A stretch of 64,000 bases of DNA, taken from assembly GCA_011364985.1 (NCBI GenBank), contig RDOC01000004.1:128001-192000 (forward strand). Direction: 5' to 3'. Each line of letters begins with the position of its first letter. The stretch's first letter is position 1. This DNA is from Candidatus Thorarchaeota archaeon (lineage in GTDB: Archaea; Asgardarchaeota; Thorarchaeia; Thorarchaeales; Thorarchaeaceae). Under the pieces are notes generated by a model that worked only from the letters and a program-made list of their open reading frames with translations, searched no databases and was not told the origin of the DNA. Shown here piece after piece: positions 2,490 to 13,687 of this stretch. Made by a program: the position numbers and the translations under genes.

Positions 2490-2549
2490 GATACTCTATG
2501 CATCATTTTCGTAATATTCTAATTCTTGAACACAGGAAAAGTAGGGAAA

Positions 2550-2667
2550 TGGTGCGGAGGGCGAGATTTGAACTCGCGATTCGGACGCCGAGTGGCAATC
2601 GCTCAGCGAACTCCTACGAGATAGGGATCTGAACCCTACGCCTTTGACCAGGCTTGGCAACCTCCGC
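2550..2667 (-). tRNA. tRNA-Leu(CAG) with a 30-nt insertion (possible non-canonical intron) at the variable arm/T-stem junction; CCA encoded
   Basis: GCGGAGG-TT-GCCAAGCCTGGTCAAAGGC-G-TAGGG-TTCAGAT-CCCTA-TCTCGTAGGAGTTC-[30 nt]-GCGAG-TTCAAAT-CTCGC-CCTCCGC-ACCA. Confidence 0.9.
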
Positions 2668-4854: not shown

Positions 4855-4876
4855 TGGGGCCCGAAGGGGGAATCGA
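4855..4876 (-). pseudogene. 3' fragment of the disrupted original tRNA-His (T-loop to CCA)
   Basis: minus strand TCGATT-CCCCC-TTCGGGC-C-CCA; His discriminator C; pairs with the GCCCGAG acceptor strand of the 5' fragment at 13538. Confidence 0.8.
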
Positions 4877-4960
4877 GAATCAGACTCCCATTAGCTTGAG
4901 TTAGATTCTCCTTGTAAACAAACTTATCATCATATTTACATGTACTAAAATGATGATAAG
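4875..4960. repeat. two adjacent inverted repeats/hairpins at the boundary of the secondary insert
   Basis: GAGAATC(4875-4881)/GATTCTC(4904-4910) and perfect 11-bp CTTATCATCAT(4923-4933)/ATGATGATAAG(4950-4960). Confidence 0.75.
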
Positions 4961-4963
4961 AAA

Positions 4964-5194
4964 ATGGAGGCGGAATTGAAGGACATCTTGGAAAACGGAA
5001 AGGATTGGGAAAAAGCAAAAACGACTACCCCAGGACTATGGATTTGCAAAATGCCCGGAAAAGGCGACAACCCTCCGAGCCTTGTCATCATCATTAATCC
5101 AATTGAGAATATTAACCCGCCTACATCAAAGAAATTAGATAGAAGTAGATTCTTTGAAGTAACAATGTCAGTATATCGTTTCAACGATTCTTAA
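4964..5194 (+). CDS. hypothetical protein, probably a truncated member of a small archaeal 'GKDWE' family
   Basis: LKDILENGKDWEKAKTTTPGLWICKMPG...PSLVIIINP resembles a conserved archaeal hypothetical family (from memory); the C-terminus looks degenerate. Confidence 0.5.
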   Translation: MEAELKDILENGKDWEKAKTTTPGLWICKMPGKGDNPPSLVIIINPIENINPPTSKKLDRSRFFEVTMSVYRFNDS

Positions 5195-5304
5195 TGAGTA
5201 GTTTCGGCAATTTCGATACCACAGAGAAAAGAACTGACAGGTGGATAAGATGGATAAGCTAATAAGCCGCTGGCGAAAATCAGCTTCTTCGTTTGAGAAG
5301 CAAT

Positions 5305-5379
5305 GGCCCGAGTGGTGTACTGGCAGCATAAGAGATTGTGGCTCTCTTGAAACGGGTTCGATTCCCGTCTCGGGCCCCA
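5305..5379 (+). tRNA. tRNA-His(GUG), intact, G-1 and CCA encoded (replacement copy)
   Basis: G-GCCCGAG-TG-GTGT-ACTGGCA-GCAT-A-AGAGA-TTGTGGC-TCTCT-TGAA-ACGGG-TTCGATT-CCCGT-CTCGGGC-C-CCA. Confidence 0.96.
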
Positions 5380-5449
5380 TATTCCATCTCATCACGAGGC
5401 GTAGCAGTTTTTTGAGATAATGTCTTTTGTTATCCAGATGACATTAATA

Positions 5450-5540
5450 ATCCAACGATAGCAAAGGAGCCACAGCCGTTCATTTTCAATTGGACCTGAT
5501 TTTGCATCAGGCTGTCCCTCCAGGAACGGCACTGGATACT
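5450..5540 (-). ncRNA. candidate TnpB omegaRNA (3' scaffold plus guide)
   Basis: Overlaps the tnpB 3' end; GCCGTTC(5530-5524) pairs with GAACGGC(5481-5475) around hairpin CCTGAT-GCAAA-ATCAGG; ends in TGTGG followed by flank-derived CTCCTTTG...; 5' boundary unknown. Confidence 0.6.
5462..5469 (-). pseudogene. middle fragment of the disrupted tRNA-His (3' side of the anticodon stem)
   Basis: CTCCTTTG directly follows the element's right-end TGTGG; TCCTT pairs perfectly with AAGGA of the 5' fragment. Confidence 0.7.
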
Positions 5541-7672
5541 CTGTCTTGAACATGAATGATGTTTCGGGCTGCATTCACATCAGCATGGAAATGTTCGTCA
5601 CACAATGAACAATAGAAGTATTCTCCACCCCTTCTCTCGACGGTGGACTGCTCATCTGCAACACGAACACCACGCTCACCACATACATGGCAGGTCTGAG
5701 AAGTGAACCTTGGGTTCACTGTCCACACACTGTATGGTGAGTGTCCAAGTGACACTCGCATATATCTCACTGTGTCTATAATCTTCCCCCATAGATTCGA
5801 ACTTAGGTTGTACGACAGGTCCTTTGACCCACCATGAGCCTGAAAGCTCCTGAGATCCTCGAAGAAAATCTTCTTGACTCGATGCTCCTCACAGAACCAG
5901 ACGGTCTTTGATGCAATGATTCGGGCGATCTCACGGTCAAGACGACGGATCTTTCTCCATAGGGCTTTGATATGCCTGTCCTTCTTGAGGATGTGTTTTG
6001 GATATGACAGTCCTGATCGTTTGCGTCCCCAATTGTTCCTCTTCCTGTCTGTAACTGATTGCAGATCATAGGCCTGCTTTCTCAAGAACTCTCTCTTCTT
6101 CACAAGCTGGTCCACTCTCAACAGGAGTTCCCTGTATTCCTTCCCCTTCATCACCGAGAGCACCACGGGAACTCTAATTCCTCTGTCAACACCAGCCCTT
6201 GCTTCATACTCTCTTTCTCCAAGAACCTGCTGTATCAAGAAATCATCAGGAGCCAAGAAAGGAATCTGCAATGAAATTCTATTCCCCCTCAGAAGAAGTC
6301 GGGGAGGAGCGCTCCTCCTTGAACTCCTGAGTTCTGTGATCTTACTCTGAAGTTTGGTAGTTTCTTCTCCATCCTTACCCTTCTTCTGTTTCACTTTGTA
6401 GAGTCTGTGTGTCAGATGCTGTATCTCAATGGTGTTCATGAGCTGTTGATGCATATCTTCGAACATCGCCGCTCGAAACCTCAACCGCTGGGCACGATGA
6501 CAATCTCCATTGTCCTCTGCGTTCTGAGCCTTGGCTCCGTCTTTGATCGTGGCACTGGACATCCAATCCAGAAATCGAAAAGCCAAGGTCTTTCCCTTGT
6601 ACGGAGAACTCTCATGATGAGTGCCATTAATTCCTGGAGGGAGCTTGATGTGAAAGAGAATCTCATTCTTTCTCTCTGGGTCGACACTAAACCAGTACCC
6701 CTGTCCAGGCGAGTTCTCTGTACTTGCACTGAAATCCAGACTATGACTCCGAAGGCATGGAACAGAGAATAGGTATCCATTCTCTTTCCAAACCTCAAGT
6801 TTCCTTGCAGTAAGAAAGAGGATGCGTTCTTTCTCAGAAACAGAATCCTGAAGCAAGGATGCTACATACTTGCGTTGTCTTCCCCTCCATTGTATCTTGA
6901 CTCCTTGTTCCTCAAGAATGTGGTCATCCAGAGCTAGCCTGAGCTGTCTTAGGACTCCAAGGGAGTGATGAAAACCAGCCCCATCGTTCTTTGCTGAATC
7001 GCATGCATCTCTCACTCTGCGGATAAGATTGGAGGGAATATGCTTTCTTCTCAGAAGTTGAAGTGCATCAGCAGCAGACTCGCTTAGCACCTTGATCGCT
7101 GCATTGAAGAGCTGCCTTCGTGTCCAGTCTGCCAGAAGTGTACGTCCAGCGTGCTCAAGGGCATTGCGATAGAGTCGCTCAAAGCATAATGCCTGAATTT
7201 CCTCGTTCTGCTGGTAATTCAAATCCCTCATCTTCCTGAGAAGGGTATAAGCTCGCCCCCTGTATTCGGATAGTTGCTGACCAAGTGACTGCACACGGTC
7301 ATTATCCTTGTATATTCTTGCAAGCATGAGATTCACTACTTGGACATAGTTGTCAAAGAGAGAACCAAGAAGCTGCAAGTCAACCTCGTCCGCTTTCTTC
7401 CCAGAGCGCTTGGGTATCAGCGTAAATATCTCTTGATTTGGTTTTCTTGATGAAGAAAAGAAGGGGTCAGGTCTTCGATTTCTCCTCCTCTTTGCAATAA
7501 CTCTGTCAACAGAGTTCAGAACAAACGACTCGACAAGATAGGATTTCGATGGGGGTATTATAAAGTTGCCATCAATTTTCTCTTGCTTCTTCTGAGTTTG
7601 AGTGACAGAACCAGATTTCTGCTTCCAGTGATGGCGCTGGATTTCTTGCTTCATCATATGTTCCTGAGTCAT
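5507..7672 (-). CDS. tnpB: large TnpB/Cas12f-like RNA-guided RuvC endonuclease (721 aa)
   Basis: RuvC-I AGVDRG, RuvC-II FFEDL, NPRFTSQTCHVC...CSLC zinc finger, RuvC-III HADVNAARNI. Confidence 0.9.
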   Translation of the reverse strand: MTQEHMMKQEIQRHHWKQKSGSVTQTQKKQEKIDGNFIIPPSKSYLVESFVLNSVDRVIAKRRRNRRPDPFFSSSRKPNQEIFTLIPKRSGKKADEVDLQLLGSLFDNYVQVVNLMLARIYKDNDRVQSLGQQLSEYRGRAYTLLRKMRDLNYQQNEEIQALCFERLYRNALEHAGRTLLADWTRRQLFNAAIKVLSESAADALQLLRRKHIPSNLIRRVRDACDSAKNDGAGFHHSLGVLRQLRLALDDHILEEQGVKIQWRGRQRKYVASLLQDSVSEKERILFLTARKLEVWKENGYLFSVPCLRSHSLDFSASTENSPGQGYWFSVDPERKNEILFHIKLPPGINGTHHESSPYKGKTLAFRFLDWMSSATIKDGAKAQNAEDNGDCHRAQRLRFRAAMFEDMHQQLMNTIEIQHLTHRLYKVKQKKGKDGEETTKLQSKITELRSSRRSAPPRLLLRGNRISLQIPFLAPDDFLIQQVLGEREYEARAGVDRGIRVPVVLSVMKGKEYRELLLRVDQLVKKREFLRKQAYDLQSVTDRKRNNWGRKRSGLSYPKHILKKDRHIKALWRKIRRLDREIARIIASKTVWFCEEHRVKKIFFEDLRSFQAHGGSKDLSYNLSSNLWGKIIDTVRYMRVSLGHSPYSVWTVNPRFTSQTCHVCGERGVRVADEQSTVERRGGEYFYCSLCDEHFHADVNAARNIIHVQDRVSSAVPGGTA

Positions 7673-7679
7673 TGTTCTT

Positions 7680-7845
7680 CATCAGCAATATTAACTCAGA
7701 GTATTATAAAGTTATCAAGATTACTAATTTATTGTCTCTTATTTTTTCTAAAAAAGGGATATAAAGGCTTATAATTGAATTATATGTTATTTTGTTTACT
7801 AACGAAATTTAATTACATGTATGTCGTAGTGTTTTCTAAGGTATC
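7680..7845. promoter_or_regulatory. very AT-rich divergent promoter region between tnpB and the giant nuclease gene
   Basis: AT-rich tract with several TATA-like boxes (TTATAAA, GATATAAA, TTTATAA, TTATAT). Confidence 0.55.
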
Positions 7846-7848
7846 CCC

Positions 7849-10800
7849 ATGAGAGGTAGAAAGGGAAGAATAAACAGCCCAAGTGGCATCCTGAGTACTG
7901 CAATCTACATGGGTCTGGTCGCCCTGTGTCGAATCTCTAGAAACAGAGCAAGTAAGAAGACTAGAAAGTTCCACCGAAGTATCGAGAAGATGTGGGCATC
8001 AGCCCGAGAAGACTACAAGGTCCAAAAGGGCCTAAGACAGAATGACTTCTCGCCTATCAAAAATGCGGAACCAAACATGCGAGGACAATTTCTAAAATTT
8101 GTCTGGACAAGCACAAAACGATATGGAAACAAGGAGTTCAAGCGCGTCTATAGCTGGTTGGAAGGAACGGTTGGACCTCTCAATGCACTTCTGAACTATG
8201 CTGGAGCTTGCCTTCGAGACCTTGCTATGGTTCTATATCCTTTTCCACAGCCTCAGAGGTTCCAAATTCGTGAATGGCCGAACGGGACTAGAAGGATTCT
8301 CACTGAATCAGAAGCTAGTGAGATTACAAAGGATGGTACAGTAAAAGTCCACTGGCGGAGTGGGTATGAGAGGAATGGCAAGAATCCTCGAGTGTTACTC
8401 TCGCATCCAACCTTGCCTAGTCTGGATTTTGTAGACATGATACGGACACATTGCGTCGAGCTCTGTCGACAATGTTTTATCTATCACGTCCCTAGGACTG
8501 AGGCACATCGATACATACGCCTCCTTATTCATCGACTCAAGCCCTTCCTTGACTGGATCTACACAAATGGACAAGAGGGCCGTTCTGGGTTCAATCCTCA
8601 TGCTGACCATGAACTTAGGAAGATGGTCCTTGAGATAAGGTCACTCTATAGAAAAAGTGCTAAGACTAGTAGACGTATCTCGGGGCAGCATAACGAGAAA
8701 CCCATTGACCTCTCTCTTGAGAAAATCCGCCAGAAGGGCATCAAACAATTGGAAGAATCCACTGATGCAAAGGAAAGAAAGCTGTTACAGAAATTCCTAA
8801 ACTATATCGATACTGCATCAGGAGTCGTAGCACGACGTGATATCGAGAAACTAATAGGTCAGATATTGGCTCTTAGTTCACGAGAGGGTACTACTTGGCA
8901 CAGGGTCCTGCTCTCAGACCTCCACCATCCGAAGTCCCTTCGTCAGGTCATTTTTTCTGGGGATCAGCTGCTTACTTCATTCTCATCAATCCTAATAGTT
9001 GCGGAACTCCCTGTTGCAGGACATTCCGGACGAGTGGACCTGACCATTTTCATCAGAAGAGAGATTGCAGGAGAGGTCTTGTGGACTCCGGTGATGATCC
9101 TTGAGATTAAGACAAAGGCAACCTTTGATTTCAACCTCTACGGATTTGAACTCAAGCGAAAAAGAAAGCATGCTGTCACCCCTGCTTTCTACGCATGGAA
9201 ACGCACTATGACTGGGAATGAGTGGCAGAGCATTGTCAATGCAAGTCCCGACCCAGATGCCCTTAATCAACTTCGAGCCTATGAACAGGAGCTTATTGCA
9301 GAGTATAGACAGTTAGCCGCTCATGACCCAGCTCCGCCCTCCTCGCTTTGGAAAGGAGTCATTGTCTTGGATGCTGAAGCGAGTCCGGAGGACATATTTC
9401 CAGCCGTCCAGTTTCTTCTTGAAGATCTGAAGACTGGGCTCCTACAGCAGCTGATTGATCGAGATTCCTTCATTGCTGTTACACCAAAATCCCTAGCTTT
9501 AGAAGGGGACGATCCCAGGGTTTCTCTACTAGTTTCTCCAGCCAGGGGACCTACTGGATTACTCGGCGAGATGGAGCCTCCCACAAGTCTACCCATTGAC
9601 GATCCCTTTGCTGACCGAGAGAGCGACGACCGACTTCTAACACTCTATGTTTCCATTCCTTCTCCAACCTCCTCGGGAGTGACTGCAGCAAGACTCTCTC
9701 GAAACTGGCATCTCCTTCATCATATTCAGGAGTGTATTGAAACAATCTCCTCCATAGAAGATGTGGTGTGGCTAGACCTTATGGGGGATTACAAGAGCGA
9801 TGAGCTTGTCAAGAAACGATTCGGCTTGCATTCCTTGAGACAGGAGAAGATGATATCCAAGAAGTCCTTTCGGGAACTCACCTCAATCCTTCAATCCATC
9901 AGGTTTCTCGACCTGAGTCCATTCATGAACGGGATTCTTACCGAAGGCGCACAGGCATTTAGCAGCCTACTAAACCATATTGCAGCTACAATCCCAGCTG
10001 AGAATGGAGAACAGATCATCATCCTTGATGGATGGACAGACCTGCAAGATATGATTCCAAGACATCAACAGCACCTACTTCGTATCCTTGAGCGAAAACT
10101 GCTTCATGCGCTCCCTCAATCAAATGTTAACATCATCTGGATTGATGACGGTGTGCCCCATACTAAGATGAACCCAGACTACCAGCGTCAGTGCATCAGT
10201 CCTCTTAGGTATGACTCCCTCCGCAAGACTCATGTTGATGAGTTCATCTACAATATGCCAATACCCTCTCCTAGGTTCTGGTGGACAAATCCACAACATG
10301 ATGATATTCGAATCATTGTGCAAGACACCCCGACCAGAGAAAACCCCTGGAAGACGGCAATCTACGTTCCACAACTTTCGGGACTTGCAGAGAAGTTTAG
10401 AGGTCTTGCCAAGCGGGACAGAGTCATTGCTCCTAAGGAAATAGCACAGGATTTGGAAGGGAAGAAACCTATGTATGGACGAGATGTGACCCTGTGTCGC
10501 ATTCATCCATCTTCAGGTATTCTCTCAGAGGATGAACTCTCTGACCTTCTAGAAGATGCGCTCACTCTTGTGCCCAGTACCCTGAGAGAGAGGATGCCCC
10601 GACTAGAAGAAGAGTGTGAAGAAATCCAGATTTCTGAAGATGCTATCTGGCAATCTGTTATCCAGACGACTAGCTCTGCAAGCGGTTCTACGATGGAAGA
10701 AAGGATGAGAATTGATGTAACAAGACCACCCCCACGACCAGGGGGAACTGACCGATACATCGATGTTCTCATCAATGCTAAAAGAGAGCGGATTACAAGA

Positions 10801-13173
10801 TCTTGGTCCTATGACCAGACCCCCAAGCAATTTCCTGATGATGCAGATGAGTCTTATCTGTGTACATTCCCTCCAGAGTTGACGATCTCTGATGCAGTAG
10901 AGATCGACTCCATTGAAACCCGTGAACGAGAGCTTGGACGGCTCAAATCAGCAACCAGATACCTGAAGCAACAGACCTTCCTCTCACAGAAACTAAGGAA
11001 AATGTGCAGGAGGATTGAGAGGCATTGCAATCAGCAATTTGCTCTCATTAAAGACAACCCCTCACTGAAGACCAGTAACTTCTTCTTTAAAGCACTCAAA
11101 CAGGTCGAAACAATTATCCTAGAGGACACGCTAGGAGCAACTATCTGGGAAACACTCCGTTCATCTCGACAAGAACTACTTGATGTTCTGAACTCAGACA
11201 ACAGACAATTCTTAGAGGAGGTCATGAAGGAAACACCTGATGCTCTCCTGCTCTATGGCAATAATCTTGTCCTAGCAATTGTTTCTGTTCTCAAGGACAG
11301 CAACTTGTCTTTAGCAAAGCCTCTCTGGGAGTCTGTTGCTAGGTGGACATTATATCAGATAGGAATGAACAGTGACAATGATATCACAAAGACAGTCTAT
11401 AGCTTTCGAGCAATTCTCTCCAACCTGAGAGCGCGCATCAATACTCTTTCGCATCTCAATCTCCCTGAGATGATTCTGGAACAAGAGCAGGTTGGTGCGA
11501 TCATTTGGATGGAGTCTGAGGCCAGGTATGATGCACTTCTTCTAATATCTCATGATAATACTGGCTTTCTAATTGGCATTATTGAGGGACTAAACAATAG
11601 ATGGATTCCAGCAAAATGGCACTCCTGTAAGACAACTCCCCAGCAGTTAAAACACCATGTGCAGAACGCTCTCACATCCACAGATAGGACACCTGTTATC
11701 ACGACCACGGTTAGAGATTTGAGTGTCCTCCTGATACCTGCGTTGACCGAGGATGATGAACTCGTCTGGAGCTGCTTCTCTCTGAAGCATGGTAGACCCA
11801 GCGGACGACGAAACAGTATTCCATGGATAAAGCTAGAACCTGCTGAATCTCTGGCAGCGCCCAGCCACGTACCTGAGATCCCAGACGAAATTGACGAAAC
11901 TCTCCGGAAGATAATTCGGGTCAAGCACAGCATCACTCCTGTAAAGCTCCTCGTTGGTATAGATGAGGAGCTTGAGGTCTACGAAGTTCAGTTAACGGGC
12001 GAAGGCATTGAAGAACGACGTAAGTTCAGACGAACCAGAGAAGCGGTTCGATTTCTCAGAACTCCAATCAGAGAGGGAGTGGGGTATCGGTGGCAGGGAC
12101 AGACTCTCACTTGGGACCATCGCAAAGATATCGATTATGGCGATTCACTCTCTTTTCTCAGACCTCTTATTCATCGGAGCAAGTTCTACCCCGATATCTA
12201 TCATTATCCAAAGACATGCAAGGACCTCCTTACCGCAAGCAAAGGACATGAGATAATCATGGTCATCAGTCAAGAGGGACCGACATACCGGGTCAAGTTT
12301 CAGGATCTCCCAGACCAATCTGCTCTGAGAGAACTGGAGATAGCGGAACTGGACATCCATGCACTGGGCCTACTTGCAGAGTGCAAGGAACTCTTTGACC
12401 TCGGAAGCAGGACTTGGCACCCATTAGTGCTAGATGTCAACGCTATCATGGACCTCTGGTTCCCCAAGCTTCATGAATACCCCCGGCTAATTGAGGCGAT
12501 TCAGGCCGCTGATGTTAACGAGTTCAACTGGTCAAGAGAAACATGGTTCATAGAGATTAGGCTTTGGAGAAATGAACTGAGATGGTGCATCATGTCGAAG
12601 ACAACAGGACTGCCTTGGATGAACAGGGAATTCACATATATCCTTACTCTTGGAAGAGAGCCTGATAAGGAGTTGGAGGCTTTCAAGGAGGTGGTCACGG
12701 CCATTGTTCAGCCAGAGCATCTCTGCAATCTGGATGACGAGCTTGAAACGTACAAGGTGACACTCAAGGAGAGGTATAGTGAATACCTTCGGACTGTCAG
12801 TGTGGAAGACGCGGATGAGAGAAAAGCTGAAGATGAGCTGGAGAAAGCTGCTGCTATAGGCGCTCCATGGGAGAGAATAGCGTTCAGGTATAGCGGAATG
12901 AAACTCAGGAGAATAAAAAGAAACACCGTGGTTGTTGTTTCCTTGGTGTCCGGCGAAGAAGAAGCAGAGGTGTACGTGGTGAGGGATGTCCAAAGGTATG
13001 TGAATGAATCTCGGTCAGCAGGTGCAATCCACTCAGAACCTGTTGATGATGAGGTGAAGGAGAGTCTTGCAGACTATGAGTTTGAGAAGGGCGAGCTTGA
13101 AAGAATCAAGGCGGCTGTCAGGAAAGTGTTGGAGGAGGAAGGAGTCAGGTTTTCTAATGAACAGGCCTTTTAG
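7849..13173 (+). CDS. giant (1774 aa) protein with a PD-(D/E)XK nuclease domain and a degenerate P-loop-like domain
   Basis: VAELPV...GRVDLTIF...ILEIKTK...NQLRAY...KGVIV nuclease motifs; SPTSSGVT, VVWLDL and IIILDGW resemble RecA-like Walker remnants. Confidence 0.75.
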   Translation: MRGRKGRINSPSGILSTAIYMGLVALCRISRNRASKKTRKFHRSIEKMWASAREDYKVQKGLRQNDFSPIKNAEPNMRGQFLKFVWTSTKRYGNKEFKRVYSWLEGTVGPLNALLNYAGACLRDLAMVLYPFPQPQRFQIREWPNGTRRILTESEASEITKDGTVKVHWRSGYERNGKNPRVLLSHPTLPSLDFVDMIRTHCVELCRQCFIYHVPRTEAHRYIRLLIHRLKPFLDWIYTNGQEGRSGFNPHADHELRKMVLEIRSLYRKSAKTSRRISGQHNEKPIDLSLEKIRQKGIKQLEESTDAKERKLLQKFLNYIDTASGVVARRDIEKLIGQILALSSREGTTWHRVLLSDLHHPKSLRQVIFSGDQLLTSFSSILIVAELPVAGHSGRVDLTIFIRREIAGEVLWTPVMILEIKTKATFDFNLYGFELKRKRKHAVTPAFYAWKRTMTGNEWQSIVNASPDPDALNQLRAYEQELIAEYRQLAAHDPAPPSSLWKGVIVLDAEASPEDIFPAVQFLLEDLKTGLLQQLIDRDSFIAVTPKSLALEGDDPRVSLLVSPARGPTGLLGEMEPPTSLPIDDPFADRESDDRLLTLYVSIPSPTSSGVTAARLSRNWHLLHHIQECIETISSIEDVVWLDLMGDYKSDELVKKRFGLHSLRQEKMISKKSFRELTSILQSIRFLDLSPFMNGILTEGAQAFSSLLNHIAATIPAENGEQIIILDGWTDLQDMIPRHQQHLLRILERKLLHALPQSNVNIIWIDDGVPHTKMNPDYQRQCISPLRYDSLRKTHVDEFIYNMPIPSPRFWWTNPQHDDIRIIVQDTPTRENPWKTAIYVPQLSGLAEKFRGLAKRDRVIAPKEIAQDLEGKKPMYGRDVTLCRIHPSSGILSEDELSDLLEDALTLVPSTLRERMPRLEEECEEIQISEDAIWQSVIQTTSSASGSTMEERMRIDVTRPPPRPGGTDRYIDVLINAKRERITRSWSYDQTPKQFPDDADESYLCTFPPELTISDAVEIDSIETRERELGRLKSATRYLKQQTFLSQKLRKMCRRIERHCNQQFALIKDNPSLKTSNFFFKALKQVETIILEDTLGATIWETLRSSRQELLDVLNSDNRQFLEEVMKETPDALLLYGNNLVLAIVSVLKDSNLSLAKPLWESVARWTLYQIGMNSDNDITKTVYSFRAILSNLRARINTLSHLNLPEMILEQEQVGAIIWMESEARYDALLLISHDNTGFLIGIIEGLNNRWIPAKWHSCKTTPQQLKHHVQNALTSTDRTPVITTTVRDLSVLLIPALTEDDELVWSCFSLKHGRPSGRRNSIPWIKLEPAESLAAPSHVPEIPDEIDETLRKIIRVKHSITPVKLLVGIDEELEVYEVQLTGEGIEERRKFRRTREAVRFLRTPIREGVGYRWQGQTLTWDHRKDIDYGDSLSFLRPLIHRSKFYPDIYHYPKTCKDLLTASKGHEIIMVISQEGPTYRVKFQDLPDQSALRELEIAELDIHALGLLAECKELFDLGSRTWHPLVLDVNAIMDLWFPKLHEYPRLIEAIQAADVNEFNWSRETWFIEIRLWRNELRWCIMSKTTGLPWMNREFTYILTLGREPDKELEAFKEVVTAIVQPEHLCNLDDELETYKVTLKERYSEYLRTVSVEDADERKAEDELEKAAAIGAPWERIAFRYSGMKLRRIKRNTVVVVSLVSGEEEAEVYVVRDVQRYVNESRSAGAIHSEPVDDEVKESLADYEFEKGELERIKAAVRKVLEEEGVRFSNEQAF

Positions 13174-13330
13174 ACTAATGAGCACACAACTCGTAGACCC
13201 TTCATGAGAAGAAGGCGATGAGAGATATCATGTCAGAAACCAGCTCCTTCTGTGGACTCTGCTGTTCTGGTATATAGAGAATCTCAACACCCACTCCATA
13301 GTCCTTGAGGATCCCTAGAAGAATGCTGGT
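13160..13330 (-). pseudogene. tnpA: IS607 TnpA serine recombinase C-terminal remnant
   Basis: Manual translation ILLGILKDYGVGVEILYIPEQQSPQKELVSDMISLIAFFS*RVYELCAH*SKR matches the IS607 pattern YGVEIEV...SPEEELVEDLISIITSFSARLYGxRSHK; stops at 13202-13204 and 13175-13177. Confidence 0.8.
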
Positions 13331-13502
13331 GACCTTGACATCCTACTCGGTGTTTAGGACTGACCTAGTCTTTAAAGCAGTCATCTTACCCTTTGTCAAG
13401 AAAAAAAGCAGTGTTTTTTTCTCAAGGATTTTCAGTGGGAAGCTAATATTGAACATACGGAAACACGAGCGAAGAACGAGGTGAGATACATGCAGAGATT
13501 AG

Positions 13503-13539
13503 CCACAATCCTTTATGTTACCATTACACCACTCGGGCC
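13503..13539 (-). pseudogene. 5' half of the disrupted original tRNA-His(GUG)
   Basis: G-GCCCGAG-TG-GTGT-AATGGTA-ACAT-A-AAGGA-TTGTGG; upstream context (CTAATAAG...GCTTCTT...CAATGGCCCGAG) is homologous to that of the intact copy. Confidence 0.88.
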
Positions 13540-13687
13540 ATTGTTTACTAAGAAGCCAGCGATGACCAGCTCGTTTGTTTTTTCTTATTAGGTTATCCGT
13601 TTAGCAACTCCACAAGCATCCCAAACAAAAGCATGGCATGATTCAAAAACATCTTCCATCAATCGGAAGCGAGGAGATTGTAATAGG

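Follow-up and report, generated by a model that had tools for sequence, protein, structure and literature searches.

How an archaeon survives with its gene for tRNA-His in pieces is the question raised by a locus in a 64,000-nucleotide (nt) stretch of contig RDOC01000004.1 (positions 128,001 to 192,000, the whole of which is called the window below). The host is a thorarchaeote with a genome assembly that is 74% complete. Its tRNA-His gene is interrupted by an insertion that encodes TnpB and a large aCas1-type protein and also contains an intact tRNA-His gene of a different and apparently foreign sequence. The explanation that we favour, and consider probable, is that an aCas1-TnpB element lodged in the sole tRNA-His gene and that the cell is viable by virtue of the foreign tRNA-His, which the nuclease of the element would recognise poorly, the element being retained by cut-and-rescue. 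The insertion and the remains of the host gene comprise the following features.

4877..13500, minus strand: the whole insertion (8,624 bp), which replaces 14 bp (tRNA positions 40-53) and has termini without inverted repeats
13501..13539, minus strand: 5' piece of the ancestral tRNA-His (positions 1-39), ending in TTGTGGCT and retaining the target-adjacent motif (TAM) side, AAGGAT, and protospacer positions +1 to +7
5461..5474, minus strand: middle piece of tRNA-His and putative guide, TGTGGCTCCTTTGC, with 13-14 nt identical to positions 33-46 of the old tRNA-His, including T42, which pairs with A28 of the 5' piece
4855..4876, minus strand: 3' piece of the ancestral tRNA-His (positions 54-75), joined directly to the 5' part in an empty-site contig
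13584..13598, minus strand: motif resembling a B recognition element and TATA box (BRE/TATA) upstream of the ancestral tRNA-His, present before most His loci in relatives and probably a promoter

A preliminary description of this locus, made from the sequence alone, recognised three minus-strand fragments of one tRNA-His, and all three are found where it placed them, except that the 5' piece extends 2 nt further (13539-13501) and the middle piece spans 5474-5461. The gap that it put at about 8 nt amounts to 7 nt, because tRNA positions 47-53 are absent from all pieces when the empty-site allele is taken as the reference. Another 7 nt (positions 33-39) are duplicated, occurring in both the 5' piece and the middle piece. 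The arrangement is not due to chance, given the inverted repeat that the 5' piece forms with the intact gene (described below) and a 13-nt exact match directly past the end of the element (P about 1.5e-8).

The minus-strand allele is the ancestral one, as demonstrated by synteny and by the empty site. In two genomes of the same genus (G013 and G004), an intact tRNA-His lies beside the same flanking genes in the orientation of the broken gene, and the broken 5' piece clusters with the native His loci of same-genus genomes. The empty site, which the preliminary description had predicted for relatives, was found among the contigs of source-like runs: an 86-nt contig (depth 13) links 13501 to 4876 via 14 letters and thus represents an intact allele, and the contigs flanking it reach a depth of 28-30, compared to 21. 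Therefore, a co-occurring strain carries the intact empty site, and 4877-13500 is a single 8,624-bp insertion in place of 14 bp; the possibility that the 3' piece is an older att remnant is thereby ruled out at this locus. The alleles also differ in an informative way. The sister strain pairs G28 with C42, but position 28 of the broken piece is A, complemented by T42 of the guide: the guide is specific to the allele disrupted by the insertion, and the sister-strain allele has one mismatch to it, at +10.

The proteins of the insertion and the putative guide RNA are encoded as follows.

5507..7672, minus strand: IS607-type TnpB, 721 aa (PF07282), with intact RuvC motifs (GVDRG, FFEDL, HADVNAA)
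5475..5545, minus strand: putative 3' scaffold of the omegaRNA and right end of the element, with AATGAACGGC at 5484-5475; conserved in about 80 family members, the sequence beyond it being variable
7849..13173, plus strand: aCas1-type protein, 1,774 aa (AlphaFold2 model, predicted local distance difference test score 84.7)
13166..13324, minus strand: remnant of the C-terminal part of an IS607 serine recombinase (TnpA), detected in a tblastn search with the intact TnpA encoded on contig C21; no canonical left end remains

Homologues of the 721-aa TnpB belong to Thorarchaeota. The right end of this family is AAT[GC]AACGG, with T or C mostly as the next base (AACGG(Y)), and the left flanks of copies with an intact IS607 TnpA end in RGGGT; given these two consensus sequences, the guide would start at TGTGG. 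The preliminary description took TGTGG for the TAM, which the same two consensus sequences exclude: these bases are guide positions 1-5, and the guide register shifts with them. Its proposal that the guide matches the old allele and mismatches the replacement holds (the match to the old allele is 13 nt, or 14 counting the next base of the sister allele), but the mismatches are not at seed positions 4-5. A search of Rfam found no model matching the omegaRNA region. Short TnpB-less copies of the omegaRNA and right end, resembling miniature inverted-repeat transposable elements, are present in L080, L084 and the genome of the host itself (C16, 133700). At L142:2050-2330, three units of right end plus guide (GGTCA or GGTTA followed by tRNA-Leu-like sequence) form a ladder behind TnpB that resembles a mini-array, and repeated omegaRNA ends are also present in L166, L182 and L193.

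The partner of TnpB, overlooked in the preliminary description, has by sequence no match in Pfam or PDB searches. In the structural model, however, residues of about 5-250 are predicted to adopt the Cas1 catalytic fold (Z 13.2, rmsd (root-mean-square deviation) 3.5, 173 residues aligned to Cas1 8flj_A; Z 11.0 with the casposase 6opm_A), with E74/H186/D193/D196/R199 conserved, and residues 592-890 a RecA-like fold with structural matches to RecA/RAD51. A PD-(D/E)xK-like motif (E386, D397, K421) lies between the two. Residues of about 1010-1190 may form a second Cas1-like helical domain (several Cas1 matches, weak at Z 6.5), which suggests an intramolecular pseudo-dimer. The aCas1 gene is arranged head-to-head with tnpB in over 60 loci, and the named matches come from Thorarchaeota or Promethearchaeota, in line with a restriction of the pair to Asgard archaea. 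In source-like runs, the spacer between the two genes contains a C/T variant bubble at window position 7686. An intact TnpA is not present in the window element but is retained in a paralogue in the same genome, a complete IS607-like copy (C21, 46806-54870) with TnpA, aCas1 and TnpB at a GGGT site within an open reading frame (ORF); excision of this copy appears to restore the interrupted reading frame.

The geometry of the junctions connects the guide with the insertion. Counted from guide position 1, the left host part keeps +1 to +7, the guide spans +1 to +14 and the gene restarts at +22; the bases +15 to +21 are found nowhere, and this is the interval in which the replacement cassette sits. 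The ISDra2 TnpB makes a staggered cut at 15/21 bp (PMC8612924), and the missing bases coincide with the interval between these two cuts, provided that the cut positions can be transferred to the 721-aa TnpB. Only 12 guide nt are used by ISDra2 TnpB (PMC10278001), so that a match of 13-14 nt is long enough. Transposition of IS607 elements makes no duplication (PMC6188088) and needs a GG core, whereas here the junction register of the target has GAT and a 7-nt duplication is present. Since neither rule fits, aCas1 is indicated rather than TnpA.

The remaining part of the composite is the replacement gene and its surroundings.

5305..5379, plus strand: replacement tRNA-His(GTG), intact and inverted (ARAGORN; Rfam 55.7 bits), with the conserved His upstream motif
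5252..5266, plus strand: upstream motif of the replacement tRNA, in an upstream region most similar to that preceding the G014 replacement tRNA-His (87.5% across 40 nt; support in the tree, 0.96)
4877..5460, no strand assigned: replacement cassette, 584 bp, occupying protospacer +15 to +21

This gene, which the preliminary description correctly reported as intact, divergent and inverted within the break, is the sole intact tRNA-His found in the 74%-complete genome, a point that the description had proposed to check. Together with the 5' piece, it forms a 46-nt inverted repeat with 87% identity. It differs from the sister-strain allele at 12 positions and mismatches the guide at positions 9-10 as well as on the TAM side (AAGGAT to AGAGAT). 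The replacement is a foreign cassette with guide mismatches. Its origin as a local duplicate was considered and rejected: the broken piece groups with the natives of the same genus and the replacement with that of G014 (in a short alignment, with modest support). The cassettes of the window and G014 are mutual closest relatives despite the different TnpB families of the two elements. A 76-aa ORF within the cassette (4964-5194) has no Pfam or Atlas assignment.

Under the favoured explanation, the element would have joined at the boundary of TAM and protospacer with a 7-nt duplication, most likely by means of the Cas1-fold integrase and not TnpA, and the TnpB cut at +15/+21 would mark the point where the replacement cassette was taken in. 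The finished composite would then cut any intact allele of the old type, whether restored, on a sister chromosome or incoming, while sparing its own spare, and because of this it would be retained and could spread by homing as a cut-and-rescue unit. Cutting of the essential host allele is predicted from the guide match and the geometry of the cut positions, and the spare, being intact, the only copy found and mismatched to the guide, is the presumptive linked resistant copy. Its immunity may reflect a survival filter on foreign alleles, not stepwise recoding or design: mismatches are expected for any foreign allele, as most foreign His alleles also differ from the guide.

The tRNA-splitting, replacement-carrying form of the element is a real and recurrent feature. 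The preliminary description suggested looking for the same combination of tnpB and replacement tRNA in other Asgard genomes, and it is indeed found there. For tRNA-His, the layout recurs in L107, which has the same TnpB family, and in G014 and G017, which have a 556-aa TnpB family; across Thorarchaeota, it is also seen for the tRNAs of Lys, Ser, Gly, Thr, Arg, Tyr, Ile and Asp. A tRNA gene lies within 600 nt of the TnpB end in 22 of the 66 aCas1-TnpB loci (20 of 64 when two loci picked through their tRNA are excluded), compared to a background of about 2-3%, and in none of the five copies with an intact TnpA. Guides match tRNA genes at 13 or more of 14 positions in 13 of 115 elements, against 0.35% of shuffled and 1.2% of genomic controls. 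A quick version of the TnpB tree has tRNA-linked copies in at least 8 places and does not unite the two His guides as sisters. Stretches of 7-10 nt shared by the 5' fragment and the guide are seen again in L010, L097, L103, L183, L195 and L025. Among the resident replacements, 20 of 22 have, within the first 12 guide nt, either a mismatch or an intron, and the replacement tRNAs of L065, L107, L160, L195 and L152 contain introns at non-canonical positions or within the guide target, which in L107 is divided by the intron. The guides of G014 and G017 run antisense to the broken host gene, which ends 17-20 nt from the guide start; being antisense, they cannot be local flank. Guides that are not adjacent to the host gene were also considered as proof of a carried guide in L152, L164, L166 and C15 but were dropped, as the guide can be flank there; only G014 and G017 are retained.

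The host genome contains three additional tRNA-linked copies: one with a guide antisense to tRNA-Asp 1-14 (C15, 184400-189300), one flanked by tRNA-Gly(TCC) (C16, 48800-55600) and one whose guide is directed to a different allele of tRNA-Ser(CGA) and lies next to an intact gene in inverted orientation (C22, 17100-17400). Elsewhere, the guide of L158 matches (14/16) the replacement tRNA-Lys carried by L010, hinting at competition between elements.

Several observations weigh against the favoured explanation. The contigs of source-like runs leave 4877-7655 uncovered, so that support for the inner junctions comes from the assembly and from the matching layout of L107. The TAM side of the old His site, GGAT, is one base off the GGGT of the family. 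The aCas1-TnpB loci are related and hence non-independent, about 70% of the elements lie away from tRNAs, and a general test for duplication is weakly positive (at least 8 nt in 12 of 54 versus 16 of 215 controls). Most native His alleles of relatives score 10-11/12 against the window guide (1-2 nt off), and the guides of the Asp elements (C15, L164) fit their own tRNA at 12/12 positions. In G015 (L067, L068), tRNA-His is broken at the same position 39, and a complete copy, identical over the shared part, lies on another contig end, the DNA between the two copies being unassembled.

Some of these observations would be accommodated by a passive accident, in which an IS607-like element landed in a tRNA gene by ordinary transposition, the guide is simply flank, the foreign tRNA came with island DNA of no relation to the element and retention does not depend on TnpB activity. 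The flank is the usual guide of a TnpB, the guide of L152 continues into the old promoter, tRNA 3' ends in this element family gather island remnants, the TAM departs from the consensus and mismatches would be present in foreign alleles in any case. This scenario nevertheless appears unlikely, considering that the duplication and the GAT target depart from IS607 transposition, that TnpA is reduced to a remnant, that the cassette is located at +15 to +21, that the layout is repeated with two TnpB families and many tRNAs, and that G014 and G017 carry guides in the opposite orientation to the host gene.

Alternatively, the TnpB-omegaRNA could pick the target for the aCas1 integrase, such that the whole composite, guide and spare tRNA included, enters conserved tRNA genes of different species in a single delivery step. 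This scheme is compatible with the obligate head-to-head pairing of aCas1 with two unrelated TnpB families, the predicted Cas1/casposase fold, the use of the same register in separate clades, the antisense guides carried by G014 and G017, and the single 8.6-kb unit seen against the empty site. However, the termini lack inverted repeats, the outer ends show a target deletion and not a clean duplication, the intact RuvC motifs lead one to expect cutting and not binding alone, left junctions vary among elements and most copies have non-tRNA guides, so that delivery in one step seems rather improbable. More broadly, and only tentatively, it can be proposed that TnpB-omegaRNA directs the Cas1-family integrase to essential tRNA genes, destroying the host allele in the act and supplying an immune whole-gene replacement, and that elements also target each other's replacements. 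If such guide-directed aCas1 activity exists, the element would be a naturally occurring drive of the homing-and-rescue type, guided by RNA, and would represent an RNA-guided integrase unrelated to the Tn7 kind. An assembly artefact joining the tRNA-His loci of two strains, for which the uncovered interval and the co-occurrence of two strains could speak, is highly improbable, because a single contig (7687-13542) runs through the aCas1 gene into the 5' piece, the assembly graph forks exactly at 4876 and the layout recurs in the independent assemblies L107, L065 and L160.

Apart from this locus, three ordered tRNA-Leu-like segments on the minus strand of the window (2549-2667) probably constitute an intron-bearing tRNA-Leu missed by ARAGORN.

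The cut-and-rescue explanation proposes a concrete, testable function and a natural target for the aCas1-TnpB pair, a possible link among TnpB, Cas1 integrases and the origins of CRISPR. It also offers a mechanism for the turnover of archaeal tRNA genes and for the gain of tRNA introns, given that several replacements have introns inside the guide target. The locus is unusually testable because one sample contains both the occupied and the empty allele and the junctions are base-resolved.

Among known systems, the insert matches an already catalogued kind, the aCas1-TnpB of Asgard archaea (Cas1H-Asgard-1/-2). Altae-Tran et al. (2023, PMC10691335) described these aCas1-associated loci, which likewise combine a TnpB of one of two groups with a divergent Asgard Cas1; there, aCas1 as transposase is a proposal only, the main text does not mention tRNA, and no account is given of insertion into tRNA genes, tRNA-matching guides or replacement tRNAs. 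The GTTCACTCA motif downstream of tnpB in that work is present in the 556-aa family and absent in the 721-aa family of the window, and the guide position proposed there differs from the one deduced here (after GGTCA, or after AACGGY). The IS607 TnpB elements, such as CboIStron (bioRxiv 10.1101/2023.11.20.567912), share with the window element a right end ending in GG, a G-rich TAM-like left flank, a serine TnpA in some family members, the RuvC D-E-D residues and, presumably, TnpB-driven retention. Unlike them, the window element has a TnpA remnant, a 7-nt duplication and a target deletion, and whereas CboIStron offsets harm to the host gene by a self-splicing intron, the window element does so by a second gene copy. 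Casposons (Aciduliprofundum boonei, PMC5137440) are similar in their Cas1-family integrase, tRNA-associated target and target duplication, but they insert beside the tRNA 3' end without an RNA-guided nuclease, whereas the window element splits the tRNA and has no terminal inverted repeats and no PolB ORF in 4877-13500. The disrupted tRNA-Thr of Caldiarchaeum (PMC3293823) and the tRNA-integrating elements that restore the gene with an attP fragment also combine a tRNA fragment with a further copy that is linked to a mobile element and often contains an intron; they lack an RNA-guided nuclease, and the spare in the window consists of an entire foreign gene, inverted and preceded by an upstream motif of its own. 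The literature searched, with subscription papers mostly outside its reach, yielded no description of tRNA-targeting guides with replacement tRNAs. CRISPR-associated transposons that home to tRNA genes likewise aim a short guide at a conserved tRNA site but, unlike the window element, they use the Tn7 machinery, insert downstream and spare the gene. The cut-and-replace logic proposed here also underlies engineered cleave-and-rescue drives, which are synthetic, whereas with the window element an RNA-guided nuclease would enforce dependence via an essential gene in nature.

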